Below, one piece after another: positions 36,208 through 48,765 of a stretch of DNA of 64,000 nucleotides. Under the pieces are notes generated by a model. It saw nothing but the letters and a program-made list of their open reading frames with translations, did no database searches and was not told the origin of the DNA. How positions within the stretch are numbered: the first letter of the stretch is position 1; every line of letters starts with the position of its first letter. The position numbers and the translations under genes are program-made. The stretch lies in sequence record NC_020079.1. The stretch is one strand, 5' to 3'. This DNA is from Escherichia phage phAPEC8.

Positions 36208-36708
36208 TTAGTTGTAAGCATCTAAAGTTCCAGAAGTCAGAACTTTAATTACTCGTTCAGCACGGTTTGGCGTCTGGCTATACCATTGGCTTTTACGCAT
36301 GTTTTTACCTGCTTGAGTATAATATGCATTGCTGATTAAAGTCAAGCTATTTTGAAACCCTTCAGCACCTTTTAACCCCAACTGGAAAACCATGTTGATT
36401 ATTCCCAATTTACGAGTATCACTAACCTTATCATAGATTGGTGATAAGATAGCACTGTTTTTTATGTCTCTCTTCACTTTTGCAACATCGTCAGCAAAGA
36501 TTTGACGGGCTTCTTTTTCTGTGATAACTCCATTAGTCTTACGACCAAGAAGATTATCTAAGATTTGAATAGCCTTTGCTTTATCTTTTATTTTAGTCAG
36601 AAGGTGTCCTATGCCGACTGTCCAATAACCAAGATGGTCTTGATAAACAGTAAGCTTCAGTCCTTCATCGACTCGTAGCATATCAAACTCATCTACTACT
36701 TTAGCCAT
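36208..36708 (-). CDS. T4-type lysozyme (GH24 endolysin)
   Basis: RVDEGLKLTVYQDHLGYWTVGIGHLLTK, INMVFQLG, WYSQTPNRAERV collinear with T4 lysozyme. Confidence 0.95.
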   Translation of the reverse strand: MAKVVDEFDMLRVDEGLKLTVYQDHLGYWTVGIGHLLTKIKDKAKAIQILDNLLGRKTNGVITEKEARQIFADDVAKVKRDIKNSAILSPIYDKVSDTRKLGIINMVFQLGLKGAEGFQNSLTLISNAYYTQAGKNMRKSQWYSQTPNRAERVIKVLTSGTLDAYN

Positions 36709-36870
36709 TTACTTCCTATTCGTCGTCTCCTACTCCGTGATCCAACTCGTTAAACAACAGATGTTCTGGAGAAGTTTCACGTTTTGGTTTCGTTTTCTTT
36801 ATGTTGGACTTCAGCTCATTTGCCAAAGCACGAGAAAAGATCTTACGTTTCTGTTTACTTTTCATAATTG

Positions 36871-37131
36871 TTACTCCGCAATTTGAGCCATGAGATCACG
36901 CAGTTCGGTAAAACCGCCTACGTATGTTACCTCCCCGTTCACTTCAGACAGAATTTGTGGAAATGTGCGTGGAGGAACTCCGGTAAGATCAACAACTGTT
37001 TTAGTCATTGATTCTAAATCATAGTCTTGATCAAGACTTAAATATTCAAACTGTTTATTGCGCATGGTTAATAGTTGTTTTGACATTTCACAAAATTGAC
37101 AGTTAGGTTTACCAAAAATTACAAATTCCAT
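36871..37131 (-). CDS. glutaredoxin/NrdH-like redoxin
   Basis: 86 aa, N-terminal CQFC active-site motif. Confidence 0.6.
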   Translation of the reverse strand: MEFVIFGKPNCQFCEMSKQLLTMRNKQFEYLSLDQDYDLESMTKTVVDLTGVPPRTFPQILSEVNGEVTYVGGFTELRDLMAQIAE

Positions 37132-37973
37132 TACCTCTCCTTATTAAGTAATACTGCTAAAGACTGTTCAATACCTTTATTTAAATCTGATTTTGTAAGA
37201 TAGTGACTGGTTACTAGTTGTGACTTCATCGGACGTGCTGCTGGAGCATTATAGGTTGAAGCTGATACCGCCGATATCTTAACAGGTTCTGGCATCTGTG
37301 TCAAGATCTTTTCCGCAAACTCCGCCCAAGAAATAAGATGGCTTCCTGCAAAATGGTAAGTCTTAACAGACCTTGACCAACCTGTTCTTAATACTTCAAA
37401 AATAGCTTCTGCTAAATCTGGAGCATATGTTGGACAAGAGAACTGATCAGCAACAATAATAAAATCACGTTGTCCATCATTATAGCGAGACAACATGGTT
37501 TTTAGAAAGTTATTTCCAAATTCGCTATATACCGAGGCTGTTCGAATAATATATGCATTTGGGTTAACTCCTCGCACCATTTTTTCACCAAGTTCTTTCG
37601 TATACCCATAATTGTTTATTGGGTTAGGTGTAGTATCTTCAAAAATAGGATGAGAATAATTAAAAATATAGTCTGTAGAAATATGCACAAAATCAATTTT
37701 AAGTTTGCTGCACACTGCCGCAATATTTGCAGGTCCATACGCATTAACAGCCAAAGCAGTAGCAAAATCATGTTCTGCTTTATCTACAGCCGTATAAGCG
37801 GCGCAATTAATAACACCATCTACATAATCTTCAATAATAGCGTTTCGCACAGCTTCAAAATTTGTAATATCTACACGTTCTTTAGGATAAATTAAAGATA
37901 CATTTGAAGGAGCCACTTTACGTAAAGCTTGTCCCAGTTGTCCATTACCGCCCAATACCAGATATGTTAGCAT
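37131..37973 (-). CDS. rmlD: dTDP-4-dehydrorhamnose reductase
   Basis: N-terminal GGNGQLG Rossmann motif; size and operon context. Confidence 0.8.
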   Translation of the reverse strand: MLTYLVLGGNGQLGQALRKVAPSNVSLIYPKERVDITNFEAVRNAIIEDYVDGVINCAAYTAVDKAEHDFATALAVNAYGPANIAAVCSKLKIDFVHISTDYIFNYSHPIFEDTTPNPINNYGYTKELGEKMVRGVNPNAYIIRTASVYSEFGNNFLKTMLSRYNDGQRDFIIVADQFSCPTYAPDLAEAIFEVLRTGWSRSVKTYHFAGSHLISWAEFAEKILTQMPEPVKISAVSASTYNAPAARPMKSQLVTSHYLTKSDLNKGIEQSLAVLLNKER

Positions 37974-38533
37974 ACACCCTCGCTACGTAACTGTTGAAAA
38001 GATTTAGCCATTGCATCTTTTGTTGATAGAATAGGTTTAAAACCTTCGTCAAAAATCATATCGAAGCCCCAATCGATCCCTATATCAGGATCATCCCAAC
38101 GTAAACTTTGTTCACTAGAAGGGTCGTATGGAGTTGTGCATTTGTATTCAAAGATAGCATCCATACTCAAAACTATAAAACCATGAGCCAAACCAGGCGG
38201 AAGCCAAAACTGCGTATGGTGTCGTGCACGAAGAACAACACCGTCCCAAGCACCGTAAGTTGGACTATCTTTACGTAAATCTACAGCGAAATCCAATACT
38301 TCCCCACTTACACAACGAACTAGCTTACCTTGCGGGTTATTTGTTTGAAAGTGCATTCCTCGCAAAACACCGAAGTTTGATTTAGACATGTTATCTTGAA
38401 CGAAAGTTTGTCTACCAATAATATCTTCGTATTTTTGTTCATTATATGTTTCTAGAAAGAAACCACGATCATCTTTATAAACGTCTGGTTTGATAATTAC
38501 CGCACCTTCAATTTTTGTTTTTTCTACTTTCAT
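37967..38533 (-). CDS. rmlC: dTDP-4-dehydrorhamnose 3,5-epimerase
   Basis: [35 protein letters not shown]; start at internal ATG. Confidence 0.9.
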
Positions 38534-39408
38534 TTTCTCTCCGCTAATTTGAGTAGGTATTGCCCGTACTCTGTTTTCTTCAGTGAGTTTCCATGATACA
38601 CCAAAGTCTCTAAAGAAATCCACCCTTTTTTGAAAGCAATTTCTTCCAAGCACGCAATCTTCAATCCTTGACAGTTCTCAATAGTCTGCACGAATTGACC
38701 AGCTTCCATCAGACTGGCGTGTGTTCCTGTGTCAAGCCAAGTAAATCCTCGTCCGAGAACTTCCACTTGTAACTTCCTGTCTTCTAGGTAGCTGCGATTG
38801 ATATCAGTGATCTCCAGTTCTCCACGCGCGGAAGGGGTTACTTCTAATGCACGTTGAATAACAGAGTTATCATAGAAATACAAACCTGTGACAGCATAAT
38901 CTGATTTAGGATTTTCAGGTTTCTCTTCAATAGAAATAGCTTGACGATTACTCCCAAATTCAACCACACCGAATCGTTCAGGATCTTTCACCAAATACCC
39001 GAAAATACAAGCTCCGCCCCAAACATCTACCATCTCACTGGCGTTAATCAGTAGTTTACCAAAGCTTTGTCCGAAGAATAGGTTGTCACCTAAAATAAGA
39101 GCAACAGAGTCTTCTCCGATAAAATCTTTACCTATGATGAAAGCTTCCGCAAGACCTCGTGGCTCGGATTGGATTGCGTAAGTGAGTTTTATCCCAAACA
39201 TAGACCCATCTCCGAGAAGATACTCAAAGTCTTCCTGATCACCTGGTGTGGTGATGATTAAAATATCCTTAATGTCAGCCAACATCAATACCGATAAAGG
39301 GTAGTAGATCATGGGTTTGTCATACACAGGGAGCAATTGCTTGCTCACACTGCGTGTTACCGGATGAAGGCGGGTTCCACTTCCTCCCGCCAAAATAATA
39401 CCTTTCAT
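38530..39408 (-). CDS. rmlA: glucose-1-phosphate thymidylyltransferase
   Basis: [18 protein letters not shown]. Confidence 0.9.
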
Positions 39409-39416
39409 AACCCTCC

Positions 39417-40409
39417 TTAAATTTTCTCACTCCACCATTGAGGGTTGTTTAAGTACCATTCAATCGTTGAGTAGAGATCTTGTTCAAATGTAGAGTTTGC
39501 ACTCCAGCCCAGTTCAGACTCTATCTTAGAAGGATTGATTTCATAACGCAAGTCATGTCCTTTACGATCTTCAACAAAAGTTATCAAGTTGGAAGAAGGG
39601 TAGGTTACTGCTTCTGGATGTACAGTATCCATATAGTCACAAACCATATAGATGATCTCCATATTGGTTTTGGGATTACGTGTTCCAACATTATACGTTT
39701 GACCTGGTTCTCCACCTGTTGCCACTTGAAGAATAGCTCGCGCATGATCCTCAACAAAAAGCCAGTCTCGCACCTGGTCGCCTTTACCATACACCGGAAT
39801 CTCTTTATTCGTCAAGATACTTGTGATGATTTTTGGGATCAGCTTTTCTGGATGTTGATAAGGCCCAAAGTTATTGGAGCAGTTGGTTATCACAACAGGC
39901 AAATCGTAGGTGCGGTGCCAAGCTTTCACAAGATGGTCAGATGCTGCCTTAGACGCACTGTACGGGCTTGAAGGGGCATAAGCTGTCTCTTCGGTAAAGG
40001 GAACGCCAGAGTCTGCCATATCGCCGTACACTTCGTCTGTGGAGACGTGTACGAACATCTTCAGTTTATTTTTTGGGAGGAGCCTTGCAGCTTCCAATAA
40101 ATTGTATGTACCGATAATATTGGAGTCGATGAAAACTCGTGGATTCTTGATAGAATTATCCACATGACTTTCTGCCGCTAAGTGAATGATGAAGTCAGGA
40201 TTGCACTCTACTACTAAACTTTTGACCTGGGTTTCGTTTGCCAAATCTGTCATGCTTAGTTTAACGTGAGTGATATCGCCTACATTCTCAATATCTGCTG
40301 CATAGCCCATCTTATCAACGACAAAAACTTCGTTATTAGGATCTTGACAAAGAGAGCGCACCACGGCACTCCCAATAAAACCAAGACCACCTGTTACCAG
40401 ATAGCGCAT
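39417..40409 (-). CDS. rmlB: dTDP-glucose 4,6-dehydratase
   Basis: [16 protein letters not shown]; extended SDR fold. Confidence 0.9.
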
Positions 40410-40418
40410 CAGTTCTCC

Positions 40419-40745
40419 TTACCAGACATGTTGAGAAATAATAGTTTCCGTTTTAATGTTATATTTTTCAAGTAGCTTTGCATAGGCTTCTTTTGCATTC
40501 TCATTCAATTGCTCAAGATCTACAGCTATGCTTCCCTCTCCGCCTTCTAAATCAAGGCCATATATGCAATAAGACTCATCCGCATCGTAGAAAGGAGAGA
40601 TGCGGCTTAAGTCCAGACCTTCTTGTAAGAACCAGTTAAAATCTCCATCAAATTCTTCTTCAATTCTAGGATCTTCTCCTACAGCCTCTTCCCATTTATT
40701 AAAAGGTGCACCCTGTAACATACGCCATTCAATATCAATACCCAT
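40419..40745 (-). CDS. hypothetical acidic protein
   Basis: ORF tiling. Confidence 0.5.
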   Translation of the reverse strand: MGIDIEWRMLQGAPFNKWEEAVGEDPRIEEEFDGDFNWFLQEGLDLSRISPFYDADESYCIYGLDLEGGEGSIAVDLEQLNENAKEAYAKLLEKYNIKTETIISQHVW

Positions 40746-40899
40746 TTTTCATCTCCTCCTCTTCTTGAGCAGCTTTAATAATTGCTTCATAAATATCGTA
40801 AGCAATGCCTCCACAACATCTAGCTTCGAAAGCTATTGCTTCTGCAATGTGATCTGTTAATTCTCGTGGAATACGGACATACTCTTTTTCATTCTCCAT
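40735..40899 (-). CDS. hypothetical small protein
   Basis: ORF; start set at internal ATG. Confidence 0.4.
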   Translation of the reverse strand: MENEKEYVRIPRELTDHIAEAIAFEARCCGGIAYDIYEAIIKAAQEEEEMKNGY

Positions 40900-41035
40900 C
40901 TTCCACCTCTTCTTTTTCAAAGACTACTACTCGTCCCTCACCATGACAATTCAGGCAAGGAAATGTTACCATAATTTCCACTTCCATCTGTCCAGTCCCA
41001 CCGCACACAGGACAAAAAATAAGTTTTTCAGCCAT
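40889..41035 (-). CDS. small zinc-ribbon protein (48 aa)
   Basis: ATG ORF below cutoff; CPVCGG ... CLNCHG; TAATG coupling. Confidence 0.4.
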   Translation of the reverse strand: MAEKLIFCPVCGGTGQMEVEIMVTFPCLNCHGEGRVVVFEKEEVEDGE

Positions 41036-41244
41036 TATTCCTCCTTAATTATTTCAAACTTGGCAACACCATTTACAATAATATGACCACAAGACATAAC
41101 TCCTAGCCAAGGATCGCCGTTTTTCTTCAGGCGTTTACCGAATACATCACAAAAACCATTCTTCATTTCGGAGGCTTCATAAGAAGCCCCTTTATCAAAA
41201 ACGTCTTTGAATGTGTCGATTATACCAACACATCTCAAAATCAT
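41035..41244 (-). CDS. hypothetical small protein
   Basis: ORF tiling. Confidence 0.45.
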   Translation of the reverse strand: MILRCVGIIDTFKDVFDKGASYEASEMKNGFCDVFGKRLKKNGDPWLGVMSCGHIIVNGVAKFEIIKEE

Positions 41245-42329
41245 TAGAAGTCAAGCTCCTCATCATCAGAGAGATCTTTGTTAGCTGAATTCAATTTGTA
41301 ATTAGTTAACTGAATCTCTTGGGCTGCTGACTGAATCAAATCAGGATTCAACCATTTTTCCATCCAAGCTAAAGGACTATGTTTAGGTGCTTTAAACTTG
41401 GCTTTCATTTTCAATCGACGATAAATAGGAGCAGCATTGAAATAAACCCACTGTTTAGACAATTCGGCGTTAAGACCTACAATAAAACGACCTTCACTAA
41501 ACAGGTAGTCACACCACTGTTCCTCTTGTTCAACAACAGTGTCGAGGATCAAAGTCAACTCTTCAATATTGTCTTCGTAAATTTTACGCCAAATTGGGTC
41601 ATGCATCAATGCATCAATTACAGCATAATCCATCTTAACATGCAAGATTTCATCTAGCATAATTTTCTGGATCAGTTTACAAGCCCCAACAAACAGTTGT
41701 TGTTCTGCCATAGCAAAAGTAGCAGAGAAGGAAGATATAAACTGAATACCTTCTAATCCAATCAGGGCTACCATCCCTTTAAGAATCAACAATCGAAGTT
41801 CATCGTTAGCTTCAATCAATCCTAGAGCATACTTATGACCAGCTTCTTCCAACTGACCCATGATATCAGCAATGATACCCATACGATTGAAAATTTTATC
41901 ATTAACCATAATCTGATTGATGACTTCAATTGGATCTGGAGTACATTGGCGGATTATTTCAGAATACGTTAACGCATGGAGAACTTCCATTTCACTCTGC
42001 TTCATCATCATAGCACAGGCTTCATTGTTACTCAAGAATGGAGAGAACAAAGTGATGATTGATTTTGCAAGAGAATCATTTTCCCATTGGAACGATAAGT
42101 TTTTAATCATAACGTCATAGTTGTTTTTAGAACAAGCTACGAAATCTTTACGTGTCTGATCCAGATTAACTTCGTTTTCATCCCAATCTTGTGCTTTTTG
42201 AAGTTTGTAGAGTTTGTGCATTTCTGGATAAGTTACGTTAACAGAATCAAAGATCCCTAATTGCTCCCCCAAAAATACTGGATATTTCCCTGTCTTGTAA
42301 ACTTCGTTGTGTAAATTAATTGCTGCCAT
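41244..42329 (-). CDS. nrdB: ribonucleotide reductase class Ia small subunit
   Basis: two E..H iron-ligand motifs (EVLH, EILH); size and adjacency to nrdA. Confidence 0.85.
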   Translation of the reverse strand: MAAINLHNEVYKTGKYPVFLGEQLGIFDSVNVTYPEMHKLYKLQKAQDWDENEVNLDQTRKDFVACSKNNYDVMIKNLSFQWENDSLAKSIITLFSPFLSNNEACAMMMKQSEMEVLHALTYSEIIRQCTPDPIEVINQIMVNDKIFNRMGIIADIMGQLEEAGHKYALGLIEANDELRLLILKGMVALIGLEGIQFISSFSATFAMAEQQLFVGACKLIQKIMLDEILHVKMDYAVIDALMHDPIWRKIYEDNIEELTLILDTVVEQEEQWCDYLFSEGRFIVGLNAELSKQWVYFNAAPIYRRLKMKAKFKAPKHSPLAWMEKWLNPDLIQSAAQEIQLTNYKLNSANKDLSDDEELDF

Positions 42330-42654
42330 TTAAATCCTCCACTATTTCACAAAAACCTCTTAAGCTTAAAATATCTTCTTCCTCAAAATCATTGCTCCGG
42401 TAGAAAGCTTCCAGTGCTTCCCATACGCTTCTACCAAGTATAACAGTCACTGTTTCTTCACTTCTTGCCCTTATTATTGCGTAAGCCGTGGCTTCTGGAT
42501 AAAAAGATTCCCAAATCTGCATGTTAGCTATTTCAAGACCGCCAAGATAATGGTGACACCAAGTAGGGGTAAAATCTTCAGGGCGAATCAACAGAGGCTT
42601 AAACCCAGGTCGGTAGATTGGGGTTACTCCAGGTAAAACTATAAGTGTGCTCAT
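42316..42654 (-). CDS. hypothetical protein
   Basis: start at internal ATG after cUUCGg terminator and SD GAGGAGG. Confidence 0.45.
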   Translation of the reverse strand: MSTLIVLPGVTPIYRPGFKPLLIRPEDFTPTWCHHYLGGLEIANMQIWESFYPEATAYAIIRARSEETVTVILGRSVWEALEAFYRSNDFEEEDILSLRGFCEIVEDLNGSN

Positions 42655-42694
42655 AATCCTCCTCAATAAAAAGGGGCTGAAGCCCCTAGTTTCA

Positions 42695-44935
42695 TCACAT
42701 TTTGCAAGCTTCACAACCACCATCAGAATCTTCTTGTGCTAAAGAGTCTGCTGATTTTGTTCTACTGTTAAGGTAATACAATGACTTGCCACCAAGTCTA
42801 GCAAAATTCAGAATAAACTGCATCTCAGCTTTCACTGATAAACGTCCACCTACCAATTTAGAATAATCTAGCCAAGAATCACAAGAAATTCCTTGGTCCG
42901 TAAACTTGGTAAAGATACCATACATTTCTGCAAGATCTTTAGCCGGAGTGTCCCAGGCAGACTGGTAGAACATTTTCAGTTTTTCATAGTCTGGAACAAT
43001 AAATAATACACTACCTTTCTGACTTTGTTTATACATAATAGTATCACGAACAGGATACAGAGAGTTAGTAGTATTGCTTACCAAACTGCTGGACTCATTA
43101 GGTGCAATAGCAGCCAAGACACTGTTACGGATACCACCTTGTTCAATGATTTCAGCACGTAAGCCTTCCCAGTCCATTTTAAGATCAAAATTACCGATAC
43201 TATCTACTGTTTTAGCATAAGTGTCAATTGGTAGCCAACCTTGAGGCCATTTGGTCTTATCGATCCATTCTGCATTACCTTTTTCCTTAGCCAGACGCAG
43301 AGAGGCTTTTGCCAACCAAAAGTAATGACGTTCTGCAAGTTCATGCATTAATTTTTTAGCATAAGCGTCTGAATAATTTACAAAATTACTTGCCAAATAA
43401 TGCGCTAAGTTTGTAATGCCTACACCAATAGATCTACGTGCTTTAGCAGTTATTTCGTTATGTTTAAATGGATAATCCATTGTTTCAATAACGTTGTCAA
43501 TTGTCAATACAGTGTAGTATGCAACATCCTCATATTCTTCAGGTAAGACACGACCAGCAACAATAGAAGATAAGAAGCATAAAGCCAATTCTTGATTTTC
43601 TGTATTCTCACCAGTAAAGAGATCCGGCATACTGTGGAAAGCTTTAGTTGGTAAGAAGATCTCTTGACACAGGTTTGATTGATACACCGTATCCAGGAAA
43701 GGTGTATGGTTGTTAACGTTGTCAGCAAAGAACATGTAAATACGTCCTGTTTCTGCACGTTGAACAATAATCTCTGTCAGAAGATCACGAGCCTTAACAA
43801 ATTTTTTCTTAATGCGACGACGGCTTACTTTGTCATAAACTGCATCAAACTCTTCTTCACTTTTATACAAAGCTTCATAAAGTTCAGGAGCATCATCACA
43901 ACTAACTAACATCCAATCTTCGTTTTTTGCTGCTCGACGCAAGAACGAACGGTTAACAACAATAGAATAATCCAGTTTGTCTACTCGTTTATCTATAGGT
44001 GTTGTTGGATTCTTCAGTCGAATCAGATCGTCGAAGTCTGGTTCAAGTATGGTAAAGGTAACTGTAGCACTACCTCCACGGCTTGCTTGCTTCGAAGCTC
44101 CAACACTATCTTCCATCCATTTCAGATACGGAAGAAGACCACCATGAATAATACGATTATTCTTAACACCTTGACCTGTGGCACGAGTTTGAAGATTAAC
44201 ACCAATACCTGCGTTATTCAACGTATACTCATGAGCTAAGTAATTAGCAATGGCTAAAGACTCTGCCGTATCGTCTGCACGGAACAAACAACAAGACGCA
44301 CTTCCTTTGATTGGAGTTCGTAGAGTTGTCAGATACGGCGATGGCAGATTAATCTTAAGATCGCTAACATAAGTATAAAGTTTTTTAATATCTTCTATAC
44401 GGCGTTCTTTTGGTTGGATCTCCATAACCTTCATTGCGATACCAATGAAAAGAAACTGTGGAGACTCATGCACCACATCGTTTACTGCATCTCGAATAAG
44501 ATATTTATCTACCATCTGACGTAAAACAGAATAACCATAAGTTAGATTTTTATTATGCTTTACAATCTTACCGATTTCTTTGATCTCTTCATCAGTATAA
44601 TCCATTTTAGCCCAATGTCCACGTTCTACCATATCATGATAAAAGGTATTCAGTGAAGGGATACTGTGGTATCCCCCATGAGCCTGTTTGTAAATCATAC
44701 CCAGAAGAAGTCTTCCTGCCATATCACTGTAAGCTTGTGTTTTCTTGTCAATACACGCTGCAATCATTGCTTTATGCAGATCACGTGTAGACACACCGTC
44801 ATAACACCGCTTCACAGCTTCTAATTCAATTTCAGACCAGTTTAGTTTACCTGCTGCAAATTCAGACCACTTGCGAAGTTTTTCTGGATTAAACTCCTCT
44901 GTCTTACCGTTAGATTTAGTTACAAAACGAATCAA
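42695..44935 (-). CDS. nrdA: ribonucleotide reductase class Ia large subunit
   Basis: 746 aa with N-terminal ATP-cone; C-terminal Cys pair. Confidence 0.9.
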   Translation of the reverse strand: MIRFVTKSNGKTEEFNPEKLRKWSEFAAGKLNWSEIELEAVKRCYDGVSTRDLHKAMIAACIDKKTQAYSDMAGRLLLGMIYKQAHGGYHSIPSLNTFYHDMVERGHWAKMDYTDEEIKEIGKIVKHNKNLTYGYSVLRQMVDKYLIRDAVNDVVHESPQFLFIGIAMKVMEIQPKERRIEDIKKLYTYVSDLKINLPSPYLTTLRTPIKGSASCCLFRADDTAESLAIANYLAHEYTLNNAGIGVNLQTRATGQGVKNNRIIHGGLLPYLKWMEDSVGASKQASRGGSATVTFTILEPDFDDLIRLKNPTTPIDKRVDKLDYSIVVNRSFLRRAAKNEDWMLVSCDDAPELYEALYKSEEEFDAVYDKVSRRRIKKKFVKARDLLTEIIVQRAETGRIYMFFADNVNNHTPFLDTVYQSNLCQEIFLPTKAFHSMPDLFTGENTENQELALCFLSSIVAGRVLPEEYEDVAYYTVLTIDNVIETMDYPFKHNEITAKARRSIGVGITNLAHYLASNFVNYSDAYAKKLMHELAERHYFWLAKASLRLAKEKGNAEWIDKTKWPQGWLPIDTYAKTVDSIGNFDLKMDWEGLRAEIIEQGGIRNSVLAAIAPNESSSLVSNTTNSLYPVRDTIMYKQSQKGSVLFIVPDYEKLKMFYQSAWDTPAKDLAEMYGIFTKFTDQGISCDSWLDYSKLVGGRLSVKAEMQFILNFARLGGKSLYYLNSRTKSADSLAQEDSDGGCEACKM

Positions 44936-44951
44936 CTTCTCCTCCCTATTA

Positions 44952-45206
44952 TTAATGCATATTCAAAACATCTACATCATAACCGAACTTCATTTCATTA
45001 AAAAGTCCATTAGCATATAGAAAACCTTCAAAATGAGTTATGTCATCAAACCCTTTTGCTTTTGCTCGACGGTCTGCTTCTTGTCTTTTAGGAGATAAAC
45101 GTTTTGAAGTGTCTAGAATTACAGTTACATTACAACCAACAGTTTCATCAAAATAGACTTCGATTTCACAGCCTTCATATTTATTATCAGTCATTGTCCC
45201 TCTCAT
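44952..45206 (-). CDS. hypothetical small protein
   Basis: ORF tiling. Confidence 0.45.
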   Translation of the reverse strand: MRGTMTDNKYEGCEIEVYFDETVGCNVTVILDTSKRLSPKRQEADRRAKAKGFDDITHFEGFLYANGLFNEMKFGYDVDVLNMH

Positions 45207-45613
45207 TGATTAGTATCATCTGCTTTCGCAGGATCATAAGAGTTACCGAAATCATCCATCTTAATATGTGACGCACCCCAACCTGTAAATTCTTCATCAC
45301 CAAAATGAAAAATATCATTTTCTTGATAGATTCGTTTAAAACCACAATTAGGTGAAACAGGGAAAGTGAAAAGCGTTGTATTTGAAAACACTACTCGCTT
45401 ATCGTTATTGCTTCGGATATTCACATTACGCTCAACAGAATAGTGTGAATCTTCAGCCATACCCAGCATTACAAGCGACGCTCTAATAACAGCATTTTGT
45501 TTCTCGTGTGGGATATTGCCATTGTGTTTATTTGATTCTAGTTTCCAGATAGGGGTAGACATTACAGTAGACATGCTTACGGTAGCCCAAGTTGTAGTAT
45601 TTACTAATGACAT
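45203..45613 (-). CDS. hypothetical protein
   Basis: start at internal ATG with SD GAAGGAGAA. Confidence 0.45.
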   Translation of the reverse strand: MSLVNTTTWATVSMSTVMSTPIWKLESNKHNGNIPHEKQNAVIRASLVMLGMAEDSHYSVERNVNIRSNNDKRVVFSNTTLFTFPVSPNCGFKRIYQENDIFHFGDEEFTGWGASHIKMDDFGNSYDPAKADDTNQ

Positions 45614-45664
45614 ATTTTCTCCTTCATTTTGAATGGGAGGACTCACCTCCTCCCAGTATTGTGC

Positions 45665-45697
45665 TATATTATACTAAAACTAATACTAAAGTCAATA
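45665..45697 (-). promoter_or_regulatory. sigma70-like promoter (TTGACT, TATAAT) on minus strand
   Basis: consensus hexamers read on reverse complement. Confidence 0.5.
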
Positions 45698-45711
45698 ACT
45701 ATTTAAACAGA

Positions 45712-46710
45712 TCACCATTTAGTATGATTTGTTAAAAGTTGACGATGTTGAATCCAGCCTTTGAAATTGCCAGACCAAAACTTACCATTACGATCTACAT
45801 GGGTAATACCTGGTTCCCAAGAGTTAAAATCCCAAGGAGCATTGATAAACAAATCTTCAAAACAGTTCTCTCCATATTGTTCGCATGTTTCTTGAATTGG
45901 AGTGGCTTGATGTTCAAACGGAGAAGCATGAACCTTGCGCCCAGTCAGCAAACGACCATAGATATCTAAAGCTTTATCTTTAGTTGCATTTAAACGACGA
46001 TAGCTAACCTGTGCACAACATGAAGCTGAAATAGCTTTGGCTTCTTCCAAAGTAAGCACAACAACTTCTCCAGATTCATCTTGAACGTAGTATCCACCAA
46101 AAACAAAATGATCGTCACCTTCTGTGCCAATATTATCGTAGAAATGGTCTACATAAGGTGTGTGCCATTGCCCTGGTTTCAGCACTTCTGGTGTAGATCC
46201 TTCATACTCTTTGTGCATCTCTTTAGCCAAAGCTTCGATAGTAGGATCGGCTTCTTTGTCATCACGTAGCCACCAGAAATTTTCATATTCTGTTGCTGTC
46301 AGAACTGTTTTAATTCGTTGGAAAGGTTCCAGAAGACGGTTTGCAACTTGTTTGTGGTACCCTGCCAAAGAGAATTCTTCTGCAAAACGTGCTGCACTAA
46401 GCGCGGCAAGATCCCACCACTCTTGAGCAGTATAACCTGCATCAATAAGAGCGTCATGATCAACACCTTTATCCTGCATACCAGGTTGGTTAGCCCCAAA
46501 ACGATAAGGACGAGCAGGTTGATTTCGCACCATTTCAATCAGTGTTTTAACAGGTATAGCACGGCTAGAAGCAGCATTACGACTGAACAGGCGGTGAGTC
46601 ATCAATTCTGAATGAATAATACGTGGATATTCTAGTTCAAAAGTTACAATCTCTTTTCCGTCTTCAGTGATGGAATGCGCAATAATACTAGCCGAAATCT
46701 GTTTTGTCAT
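45712..46710 (-). CDS. thyX: flavin-dependent thymidylate synthase-like (ThyX family)
   Basis: ThyX-type signature THRLFSRNAASSRA; 332 aa, longer than typical. Confidence 0.65.
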   Translation of the reverse strand: MTKQISASIIAHSITEDGKEIVTFELEYPRIIHSELMTHRLFSRNAASSRAIPVKTLIEMVRNQPARPYRFGANQPGMQDKGVDHDALIDAGYTAQEWWDLAALSAARFAEEFSLAGYHKQVANRLLEPFQRIKTVLTATEYENFWWLRDDKEADPTIEALAKEMHKEYEGSTPEVLKPGQWHTPYVDHFYDNIGTEGDDHFVFGGYYVQDESGEVVVLTLEEAKAISASCCAQVSYRRLNATKDKALDIYGRLLTGRKVHASPFEHQATPIQETCEQYGENCFEDLFINAPWDFNSWEPGITHVDRNGKFWSGNFKGWIQHRQLLTNHTKW

Positions 46711-46719
46711 TTTTTCTCC

Positions 46720-47328
46720 TTAGTTTTTAAAATTGTTCAAAGTGTTAAAAACATCCAAACATGTTAGCCACTGATCTTCTAAACCTGTGATCACAACATT
46801 TGGTTTTTTCTTTAGTTCTTCTAGATGGTTATCTTTATAAGGCGTATTAAAATATATTTTAACCACTTCATCTGGAAAATATAGTAGGTTATCAGACCTG
46901 TCATCTATTGCTATATCACAAGGCAATAAGTATTTTTCTTTCGTAGCAAAAAAGCCGTTACCAGATCCTTTGCTAAAATCAATCGTATCTAACGTTCTTA
47001 AAACATGCTTATGTTTAGAACTTAAGTGACCACCTTTTGTCACACTTGCGATCAAAAGATTGCTACCTTTCCTTGAAACATACTTTAAGAAATCTGGCAT
47101 ACCTGGAACAAAACCCATTGTATCATAGAGATGAGGATTATCCAGAAATCCGTAAGGATCTATATTGAACTCCTCCCTGAAACCAGGAAAGTAGTTGGTA
47201 AGATCATAGTCTGCATTTTTTGTGAATGTGTCTATCTTAACACCAAGTCCACTAATCTTATTCAACCATTCTAACCAAGCAACATCTAATGGAGCCACAA
47301 CTAAATCCCAATCACATACTATCTGCAT
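46720..47328 (-). CDS. HAD-superfamily 5'(3')-deoxyribonucleotidase-like
   Basis: N-terminal DWDLV (DxD motif I). Confidence 0.45.
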   Translation of the reverse strand: MQIVCDWDLVVAPLDVAWLEWLNKISGLGVKIDTFTKNADYDLTNYFPGFREEFNIDPYGFLDNPHLYDTMGFVPGMPDFLKYVSRKGSNLLIASVTKGGHLSSKHKHVLRTLDTIDFSKGSGNGFFATKEKYLLPCDIAIDDRSDNLLYFPDEVVKIYFNTPYKDNHLEELKKKPNVVITGLEDQWLTCLDVFNTLNNFKN

Positions 47329-47364
47329 AAAACCTCCTCTCTCTTTTAGTATAGTTATCTTATA

Positions 47365-47940
47365 CTAACTTTCAATTTCCTGCAATAGGATTTTGACTAT
47401 TTGTTTGCGGCGTTTCGCTACTGTGCTTTCAGGTTCTATTTTACGCTTCTTCAACCAAGCTTTATCTTTCTTAGCTCTACACAAAGCTATTGCTTCTTTT
47501 TCAGCTTTCGCTTCTTCAAAAGATATACCTTGTTTATCTGCATAAGCAAGAATAGAGTTGCACAATTTACAAACCATTCGCAAATCTTCTTCTTTCACAT
47601 AGATCAAACGGAAAACAAAAAGGGGAATATCCTCAAAACATTGAAGTTGTTTTGCTGCGTGAATATGATCCACTTGGAAGTCTTTCATTCCTCCTCTGTG
47701 TCCACATATTTCGCACTCACAATTCCAAACTTGTTTTGGTTTTCCAGTTTTCTTGTCTATCATCACATTGCCGTCTTTATCTACACGATCAACTTTAAAA
47801 CGCCTTGCATTGATAACCTTAATTTTATTAGGGTGTCTCATCCATGCTTTTCTAAAACATCCCCTAAGATAAGTATAAAATTCAGCTTGTGTTTTCCAGG
47901 GTGTTCCTTCACCCCACATTATTTTTGGTTCACCTGCCAA
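47365..47940 (-). CDS. HNH endonuclease
   Basis: CECEICGH ... DHIHA ... CKLCN. Confidence 0.6.
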   Translation of the reverse strand: MAGEPKIMWGEGTPWKTQAEFYTYLRGCFRKAWMRHPNKIKVINARRFKVDRVDKDGNVMIDKKTGKPKQVWNCECEICGHRGGMKDFQVDHIHAAKQLQCFEDIPLFVFRLIYVKEEDLRMVCKLCNSILAYADKQGISFEEAKAEKEAIALCRAKKDKAWLKKRKIEPESTVAKRRKQIVKILLQEIES

Positions 47941-47980
47941 TATTGCTCACCTTTTTAGCTGTATATTCCCCTGGTGGGAT

Positions 47981-48010
47981 ATTGTGTTTAAAAAACAAAA
48001 GGCGGTCTAA
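47981..48010 (-). terminator. Rho-independent terminator
   Basis: GGCGG..CCGCC hairpin followed by T-run on minus strand. Confidence 0.5.
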
Positions 48011-48107
48011 CCCCGCCTTGCACATTGTTTCTGGAATAGTCAAAGTTAGTAAAAGTTTATCACCTTTTCGGTTGAATATTTTATAAACTTCTCCTGCTCC
48101 ATATTGT

Positions 48108-48509
48108 TTAGTATTGCTCGCCACTAATACGTTCCTTAAGTTGTTTAATAGCTTCGATTGCATCTACATAAGAAGAGTTATACATGTGTTTCAGTGCTAC
48201 TCGTACTAAAGGATCTTTTGTGAAGAAATCAATAAGAAGCATAGCTTGATCATGTTTAGCTGCATTTGTCATAGATGGATAATTTTCACGAACCATATAC
48301 GTGTTATTTTGCATAAGGGTTCTTTCTAGTTCAATACAATGAATAGCTTTATCTAGGTTAATCTGACGTTCACCTTTAATACGTGTTGCGTATTTTGCCA
48401 ATTTGCAAAAACAAGGTGTGCCACCAACCAAATAAGCTAGTTCAATAGGTTGCATTGCCATTTTTGTGTAGTGATCACCGTCAACCTGATTATCAAAAGC
48501 ATTAGACAT
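48108..48509 (-). CDS. hypothetical protein
   Basis: ORF tiling. Confidence 0.5.
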   Translation of the reverse strand: MSNAFDNQVDGDHYTKMAMQPIELAYLVGGTPCFCKLAKYATRIKGERQINLDKAIHCIELERTLMQNNTYMVRENYPSMTNAAKHDQAMLLIDFFTKDPLVRVALKHMYNSSYVDAIEAIKQLKERISGEQY

Positions 48510-48765
48510 AATTTTCCTCCTGAATTCCTACTGCACCTTCTTCTGGGTAGTCTGCATAATAAGCTACCCTACCTTGATAGATAACATCACCATCATTATT
48601 GTAGATTGCTGTATCTTCTTGAATTGTTATTTCAACATCAAGTAAATCTGGGTCTTTCTCGATGGTATAGTTCAAACCTAACATTTCAAACAGTTCGAAA
48701 ATTTCGTTACCTGTTAATGTAATGCTCATATTTCCTCCTTTTATTGTGGTTAGCAGAGTATACAC
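48502..48765 (-). CDS. hypothetical protein
   Basis: ORF tiling. Confidence 0.5.
   Translation of the reverse strand: MYTLLTTIKGGNMSITLTGNEIFELFEMLGLNYTIEKDPDLLDVEITIQEDTAIYNNDGDVIYQGRVAYYADYPEEGAVGIQEENYV

Follow-up and report, generated by a model that had tools for sequence, protein, structure and literature searches.

Does an unusually long thymidylate synthase of the flavin-dependent ThyX family, encoded by Escherichia phage phAPEC8, carry an extra domain, or does it perform a different chemistry? The question is raised by a gene at 45712-46710 (minus strand) in a 64,000-nucleotide stretch of the phage genome (NC_020079.1; this whole stretch is referred to as the window), which encodes a ThyX-like protein of 332 amino acids (aa) within a cluster of nucleotide-metabolism genes. 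An initial annotation of this DNA described the protein as longer than typical ThyX and proposed an additional domain or another type of pyrimidine-C5 chemistry. Our results indicated homology to ThyX, a ThyX fold, conserved ligand residues, and an order of chain segments that is not collinear with that of canonical ThyX. Judged from its sequence, the protein is probably a working enzyme of rearranged architecture that makes ordinary deoxythymidine monophosphate (dTMP). With regard to length, the description holds against canonical ThyX (191 positions in the Pfam model; chains of 216-270 aa in the PDB) but not within the protein's own subfamily, whose members cluster at ~295-350 aa.

Standard models recognized part of the protein. 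The threshold of the Pfam Thy1 model (PF02511) was passed (33.3 vs 24.8 bits), with profile positions 59-190 matched by residues 22-174 alone, and the PHROG family phrog_85 ('thymidylate synthase') matched with E=1e-107. Taken together, Pfam and the NCBIfam model TIGR02170 covered residues 22-176 alone, which represent the second two-thirds of the ThyX model. A PDB search with the single sequence returned no match and a family profile was needed; the profile that we built from 117 diverse members (down to 38% identity to the query) matched ThyX exclusively among PDB sequences. The HMMER domain matches to these structures were non-collinear and fell into three pieces, with profile positions 212-255, 23-52, and 129-174 corresponding to Thermotoga maritima residues 31-72, 73-102, and 167-212, respectively (His-tagged numbering). 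In T. maritima, the first of these intervals holds helices alpha1 and alpha2 and 'GHETPFEH', and the second holds the RHR...S.R motif.

Profile-profile comparison with hhalign gave the same picture. With T. maritima ThyX and viral ThyX genes aligned as the canonical reference, the primary alignment paired residues 19-176 with T. maritima 59-201 (probability 95.7%, P=9e-9). A second alignment, not collinear with the first, joined residues 227-271 to T. maritima 21-63 (P=1.5e-5). Taken alone, the C-terminal sub-profile (177-332) matched the canonical N-terminal region (probability 90%, P=1.6e-6). The T. maritima query sequence agrees with the PDB numbering and the matched fragments, and viral ThyX genes were recovered with it. 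When residues 219-267 were returned in silico to a position between residues 18 and 19, the score against Pfam Thy1 rose from 33.3 to 45.5 bits, and the covered part of the model grew from 59-190 to 14-190.

The chain thus appears to run from an N-terminal strand through the core and a family-specific sheet to the alpha1-alpha2-HxxPFEH cofactor segment and a family-specific tail. Specifically, the catalytic core (residues 19-176; 46183-46656, minus strand, as are all segments given here) holds R125, N144, and R149, and in its translation we found an altered ThyX motif, THRLFSRNAASSR, at residues 38-50 (46561-46599). A loop at residues 64-94 (46429-46521), gapped relative to canonical ThyX in hhalign, carries an invariant G77-M78 within a 'GxNQPGMQ' motif. 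The family-specific segment at residues 177-226 (46033-46182), with invariant H183 and P185 ('W-H-x-P-Y'), forms a three-stranded sheet in the predicted model (strands 188-193, 202-210, and 216-219). It is followed by the relocated alpha1-alpha2-HASPFEH segment (residues 227-271; 45898-46032), on which HMMER, hhalign, and the in-silico rearrangement agree. Conservation and the model together define the tail (residues 272-332; 45715-45897) as a variable loop and then 'WSGN..GW.Q.RQL', which includes R323. The rearrangement may reflect either a duplication followed by differential loss or the transposition of the segment. An internal duplication was looked for by comparing the tail (272-332) and the sheet (177-230) with the protein's own N-terminus and with canonical ThyX, and no similarity emerged (hhalign probability <1%); 'QHR' in the tail could not be demonstrated to be a second RHR motif.

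AlphaFold2, run on the 117-sequence alignment, predicted one confident compact fold, with a mean predicted local distance difference test (pLDDT) of 95.1 and a predicted TM-score (pTM) of 0.92; the pLDDT dips to 71-83 at about residues 271-290 and then exceeds 96. The three-dimensional fold of the model is the ThyX fold, and the order of its secondary-structure elements (two strands, core helices and strands, the three-stranded sheet, two helices, the FEH turn) fits the rearrangement. These results bear on a complete canonical ThyX fused to a separate C-terminal accessory domain for regulation, protein-protein docking, or nucleic-acid binding, which we consider a very improbable arrangement. 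It is true that Pfam and NCBIfam match residues 22-176 alone, that some 155 residues follow, and that the last 60 residues and the sheet at 177-226 resemble nothing known. However, the part covered by Pfam is itself incomplete: it is devoid of alpha1-alpha2 and of the ligands equivalent to T. maritima H53, S30, T55, and E58, which occur in the C-terminal part only. Pfam found no match in residues 174-332 searched alone, and comparison of the single compact model with PDB and BFVD detected no fold besides ThyX. The domain analysis and structure prediction that the initial annotation had called for thus speak against an extra domain. Rather than being an add-on, the C-terminal 155 residues hold an essential ThyX element that has moved from the N-terminal region.

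We transferred T. maritima residues to the phage protein through the hhalign alignments and counted them over the 117 family sequences. Twelve canonical ligand-binding residues were invariant or nearly so. In the relocated segment, S30 corresponds to S236 (117/117), H53 to H261 (117/117), T55 to S263 (115/117), E58 to E266 (111/117), and H59 to H267 (116/117). In the core, the equivalents are H39 for H79 (117/117), R40 for R80 (96/117, plus seven with Lys), S48 for S88 (116/117), R50 for R90 (117/117), R125 for R147 (117/117), N144 for N169 (117/117), and R149 for R174 (117/117). From the T. maritima structures, we take S88, R90, R147, and R174 to be ligands of deoxyuridine monophosphate (dUMP), and S30, H53, T55, and E58 to be ligands of flavin and folate. 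Four other T. maritima residues are replaced: R78 by T38 (113/117), Y91 by A51 (117/117), E86 by A46 (Ala or Ser in 99/117, i.e., 65 Ala and 34 Ser), and R165 by T140 (115/117). The ThyX signature noted in the initial annotation is therefore real but altered: in THRLFSRNAASSR, the histidine, the second arginine, both serines, and the final arginine of canonical RHRxxSxxxxSxR are present and conserved, and the first arginine (R78) is Thr in 113 of the 117. The family has invariants of its own in K120, H183, P185, and R323 (the last in 117/117), with Y237 in 105/117; conservation in the tail extends to Q321 (114/117) and N315 (112/117). In mechanistic work, Tyr91 and Ser88 have been described as critical and 'strictly conserved'; Tyr91 was proposed to act as a general acid when the carbinolamine breaks down, and Arg78 was described as stabilising the reduced flavin at FADH- N1/C2=O (PMC11940539). 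The subfamily thus appears to keep its nucleotide, flavin, and folate ligands, yet it is devoid of two residues held to be mechanistically important.

The same constellation is not a peculiarity of one phage. When 1.84 billion representatives were scanned exhaustively with HMMER, 4,982 clusters (50% identity) fell into the subfamily at E<=1e-3, and 1,608 of them at E<=1e-30. By tblastn, the subfamily was present in 1,033 of 50,697 phage records, including rV5-like, ICP1, PAK_P1-like, N4-like, phiCbK-like, and Flavobacterium phages, and canonical ThyX was present in 2,142 phage records. Among cellular genomes, at least 10 loci were identified in 185,579 species genomes using two peptide patterns (the count is a lower bound), all of them on contigs of metagenome-assembled genomes of 7-130 kb. 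The rearranged subfamily therefore looks essentially viral, as far as its sequences indicate. Other phage ThyX proteins of 300-370 aa, from crAss-like phages, Sulfitobacter phage phiCB2047-B, Pseudomonas phage goonie, and Gordonia phage Skog, align to the model over ~160 columns alone (BFVD), and other long ThyX variants with a different architecture probably exist. We note that two records labelled as Campylobacter phages, MG065689.1 ('A110a') and MG065690.1 ('A135'), carry ThyX-like genes 72% and 53% identical to the phAPEC8 protein, and their genomes are of a size usual for rV5/phAPEC8-like phages; these host labels may be wrong.

Could the protein be a ThyX relic that has lost catalysis but is retained for structural or regulatory purposes, for example to bind nucleotides or folate or to serve as a decoy? 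The residues held critical (Y91 and R78) are missing, the score falls far under the thyX equivalog cut-off, and the host has its own ThyA. Even so, we regard this as extremely unlikely, given that the twelve ligand residues stay invariant or nearly so among members down to 38% identity to the query, that the subfamily is kept in thousands of phage lineages, and that it holds a conserved place in the nucleotide-synthesis module. Inteins that target the ThyX-like motifs speak against a relic as well. Three insertion sites are seen among homologues: one follows H33, one follows R40 within the THR motif, and one follows H261, the last in homologues P0157 and P0172. The intein-bearing homologues (P0128, P0135, P0143, P0157, and P0172) are 556-683 aa long and carry Intein_splicing plus HNH, or LAGLIDADG, domains. 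Inteins usually sit in active-site motifs of enzymes under selection. Their presence in the THR motif and after H261 therefore indicates that the motif and the relocated segment are functionally central, and the distribution of sites suggests repeated, independent invasion of active-site motifs in this phage enzyme. Homologues of 630-680 aa were also considered as tandem ThyX proteins or fusions; this was ruled out, as the extra length consists of inteins with HNH or LAGLIDADG endonucleases.

If the protein is an ordinary thymidylate synthase, as we think probable, it would convert dUMP, methylenetetrahydrofolate (CH2-THF), and NADPH into dTMP, with flavin adenine dinucleotide (FAD) as the relay of methylene and hydride. 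FAD and folate would be bound via S236, H261, S263, and E266, and dUMP via S48, R50, R125, and R149, while R323, K120, H183, and possibly Y237 may substitute functionally for the absent R78 and Y91; the product would be ordinary dTMP. The gene occupies the usual place in the phage module for deoxynucleoside triphosphates (dNTPs), beside the ribonucleotide reductase subunits and glutaredoxin. Searches by tblastn of the window and of 144 kb of the close relative vB_Ec-G1 returned no ThyA, FolA (dihydrofolate reductase, DHFR), trimeric Dut, dCMP deaminase, or canonical ThyX; for ThyA, FolA, and Dut (Escherichia coli queries) and dCMP deaminase (T4 query), these negatives depend on the accuracy of the query sequences used, alongside the annotation of vB_Ec-G1. 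That annotation lists no other thymidylate synthase. Enzymes of the ThyX type are independent of DHFR. The protein is thus the phage's apparent sole thymidylate synthase, and it would supply dTMP, hence dTTP, to both replication and the neighbouring dTDP-rhamnose pathway. That operon uses dTTP and may therefore be a second reason to boost dTMP synthesis.

The dTDP-rhamnose genes lie downstream on the same strand, where rmlBACD and glutaredoxin span 36871-40409 with strong Pfam matches throughout: RmlB at 39417-40409, RmlA at 38530-39408, RmlC at 37967-38653, and RmlD at 37131-37973. A complete dTDP-L-rhamnose pathway between nrdB and the glutaredoxin gene amounts to a sugar-nucleotide operon embedded in the dNTP module. 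Possible targets of this pathway are the host surface, virion proteins, or DNA. In the record of vB_Ec-G1, 87984-91128 and 103359-107090 hold four consecutive glycosyltransferases beside primase/helicase and a second, anaerobic ribonucleotide reductase (NrdD/NrdG-like); the glycosyltransferases may be users of dTDP-rhamnose. The same relative has two annotated DNA methyltransferases, EcG1_123 beside DNA polymerase, and EcG1_019.

It is in this context that a product other than dTMP has to be weighed. With the ThyX scaffold and its flavin/folate chemistry, the enzyme could stop at the exocyclic-methylene intermediate or hydrate it to 5-hydroxymethyl-dUMP, or could methylate dCMP or UMP as PolB does UMP. 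In that case, the neighbouring nucleotidase would serve to remove the canonical nucleotide that competes with the product. We judge such a product to be unlikely. Its possible indications are that Tyr91, the proposed general acid, is invariantly Ala, that Arg78 is Thr and the equivalents of Glu86, Gln75, and Arg165 are changed, that new invariant residues and a conserved loop occur near the motif, that an NT5C-type deoxynucleoside monophosphate (dNMP) phosphatase is the conserved upstream neighbour, and that rmlBACD lies just downstream, with four glycosyltransferases elsewhere in a close relative. However, the residues that bind the phosphate and base of dUMP are all kept, and neither tblastn nor the relative's annotation gave another thymidylate synthase for the phage. 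The subfamily is also present in more than 1,000 phages of many well-studied groups (rV5-like, N4-like, ICP1, PAK_P1-like, and phiCbK-like); to our knowledge, none of these groups has been reported to have modified thymine. A literature search, of open-access-weighted coverage, found no flavin-dependent hydroxymethylase, and the known thymidine-hypermodifying phages start their pathways with hydroxymethylases of the ThyA family (PMC8989533). Vequintavirinae and relatives have been described as 'exceptionally susceptible' to restriction-modification systems, despite putative dTDP-glycosylation machinery in phi92-like phages (PMC8594841).

Thus, the different pyrimidine-C5 chemistry of the initial annotation is possible in so far as Tyr91 and Arg78 are systematically replaced, but nothing positive speaks in its favour. 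The link from the ThyX-like protein to DNA modification, which had been drawn from the rml operon, is weakened by the high restriction sensitivity of relatives (PMC8594841), given that Vequintavirus phages share this ThyX subfamily (at ~53-54% identity). The wider scheme, in which the permuted ThyX would be a flavin-dependent C5 enzyme (a dUMP hydroxymethylase, or a dCMP or UMP methylase) in an unnoticed nucleotide- or DNA-modification pathway together with the dNMP phosphatase, the dTDP-rhamnose operon, and the glycosyltransferases, seems to us very unlikely. The answer to the DNA-modification question is mostly negative, and the module looks like ordinary dNTP supply.

Nonetheless, our preference for ordinary dTMP synthesis needs to be interpreted with caution, since several points weigh against it. 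Tyr91 (Ala51, 117/117) and Arg78 (Thr38, 113/117) are systematically lost, with Glu86 and Arg165 also replaced, and the protein misses the cut-off of the TIGR02170 thyX equivalog (31.1 vs 87.9 bits). R323, K120, and H183 would have to reach the active site, and residues 227-271 would have to take the canonical alpha1-alpha2 position in space. It is not obvious what synergy a dTMP synthase would have with a dNMP phosphatase encoded directly upstream, and the restriction-sensitivity data come from Vequintavirus and phi92-like relatives, not from a Phapecoctavirus. Finally, we found no biochemical or genetic test of any subfamily member in the literature and no solved structure in the PDB. A literature search for permuted or atypical ThyX, or for experiments on long phage ThyX, found nothing relevant, a weak negative as most subscription journals lie outside its coverage.

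The neighbour directly upstream of the ThyX-like gene, and the first gene of the run, encodes a 202-aa protein of the haloacid dehalogenase (HAD) superfamily resembling NT5C-type 5'(3')-deoxyribonucleotidases (46720-47328, minus strand). It passes the Pfam threshold for NT5C (PF06941) marginally (27.2 vs 24.8 bits), HAD motifs I-IV are present with invariant motif residues, and the NT5C-type fold was matched. PDB sequence and shallow-profile searches found no homologue, and it was the fold comparison that settled the assignment. The protein is thus predicted to be a true NT5C-type HAD phosphatase. Its close detectable relatives form 23 clusters, from related phages only, and the gene stands directly upstream of the ThyX-like gene in 7/7 related viral contigs examined. 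It could act in a dUMP/dTMP substrate cycle, in dUMP clearance where no Dut was detected, or in processing dNMPs from host DNA.

With these assignments, Pfam and PHROG matches upheld NrdA, NrdB, the ThyX-like protein, and the NT5C-like protein as the clustered members of a nucleotide-metabolism module, as had been annotated. All genes of the module lie on the minus strand of the window, in the order NT5C-like, ThyX-like, two small ORFs (open reading frames), NrdA, one ORF, NrdB, four small ORFs, RmlB-A-C-D, and glutaredoxin. NrdA, the large subunit of an aerobic class I ribonucleotide reductase (42695-44935), matched Ribonuc_red_lgC (PF02867) with 327 bits, Ribonuc_red_lgN (PF00317) with 43.5 bits, and phrog_84 with E=3e-268; its N-terminal ATP-cone stayed below threshold (23 bits vs the Pfam cut-off of 25.8). 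NrdB, the small subunit (41244-42329), matched Ribonuc_red_sm (PF00268) with 115.5 bits and phrog_86 with E=2e-103. By Pfam, the pair has the expected domains, i.e., a large-subunit barrel with all-alpha domains and a ferritin-like small subunit. Two conserved small ORFs lie at 45203-45646 (147 aa as listed; phrog_15711 over residues 12-147; no match in Pfam or NCBIfam) and 44952-45206 (84 aa; phrog_15807). The conserved ORF between nrdA and nrdB (42316-42723), called at 135 aa, matched phrog_17458 over residues 24-135, and its true start is probably Met24. The module is ordinary phage dNTP supply and is already so annotated in many genomes.

Two candidate regulatory sites, both minus strand and both based on consensus match alone, were identified. 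The best sigma-70-like promoter match in the 12-kb stretch scanned (36500-48600), TTGACT-16-TATAAT with 11/12 positions, lies at 45668-45695, in the gap that follows the ThyX-like gene. A terminator-like GC-rich hairpin, AGGGGCTTCAGCCCCT, followed by a T-run, lies at 42672-42687 directly after the nrdA stop codon and falls within the N-terminal extension of the called 135-aa ORF. An HNH endonuclease gene (phrog_1985; 47365-47940, minus strand) stands just upstream of the nucleotidase gene. In relatives such as vB_Ec-G1, a further HNH gene occurs between nrdA and the ORF upstream of nrdB; it is absent here, which is why BLAST aligns the region to these relatives in two pieces. In nucleotide comparison, the region was 99.9% identical to Escherichia phage vB_EcoM_UP17 over 6,085 bp, and at least 80% of it was covered in 69 phage records, including close relatives in the genus Phapecoctavirus (Stephanstirmvirinae). 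The GC skew changes sign at ~24 kb and ~58 kb of the window, bracketing a long minus-strand block of early/middle genes that includes the module.

The 'long ThyX' is thus not peculiar to this phage, and it is not a ThyX to which a domain has been added. By the comparisons made here, the protein belongs to what appears to be a very large ThyX variant, specific to phages, whose topology is non-collinear and whose catalytic constellation is systematically altered; we found no description of this variant. ThyX, which humans lack, is a drug target whose mechanism remains under debate. Work on that mechanism has treated Tyr91, Ser88, and Arg78 as universal, and here a clade of ~5,000 clusters does without Tyr91 and Arg78; among sequenced phages, it accounts for about one third of ThyX-type genes (1,033 vs 2,142 records). 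Should these enzymes produce dTMP, other residues must have assumed the roles proposed for Tyr91 and Arg78, and the clade would serve as a natural experiment on the ThyX mechanism; otherwise, the annotation in more than 1,000 phage genomes is wrong. Of the standard models, Pfam detects just half of the protein and TIGR02170 rejects it, so the subfamily merits a family model of its own.

When compared with known systems, the neighbouring phosphatase is just 13-20% identical to members of the NT5C family (human cdN/mdN; Staphylococcus epidermidis 3BWV). The ThyA-family enzymes of phages (thymidylate synthase and dCMP/dUMP hydroxymethylases) hold an analogous position and role in phage nucleotide modules and are the known route to the precursors 5-hydroxymethyldeoxyuridine and 5-hydroxymethyldeoxycytidine for modified phage DNA (PMC8989533, PMC7824862). 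However, their fold and mechanism are unrelated, these enzymes depend on DHFR, and searches of this phage revealed no homologue of either ThyA or DHFR. PolB (PDB 4P5A; chain of 226 residues), the C5-methylase of UMP and dUMP in polyoxin synthesis and a ThyX homologue whose substrate range is altered, shows no specific link to the phage protein beyond the shared fold; it has the canonical segment order and belongs to a Streptomyces antibiotic gene cluster. The closest comparison is with canonical ThyX itself (PF02511, TIGR02170; 1O26/1KQ4 from T. maritima, 2AF6 from Mycobacterium tuberculosis, 2CFA from PBCV-1, and 3AH5 from Helicobacter pylori). The phage protein shares its homologous core and xHR...S....SxR, conserves the equivalents of S30, H53, T55, E58, H59, H79, R80, S88, R90, R147, N169, and R174, and serves the same role among the nucleotide genes of a phage in which no DHFR was found. 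Unlike canonical ThyX, in which alpha1-alpha2-HxxPFEH precedes the core, it carries this element after the core (227-271), so that the two chains are not collinear. It is also longer by ~110 residues (loop 64-94, sheet 177-226, and tail 272-332), and has Ala in place of Y91, Thr in place of R78, Ala or Ser in place of E86, and Thr in place of R165.

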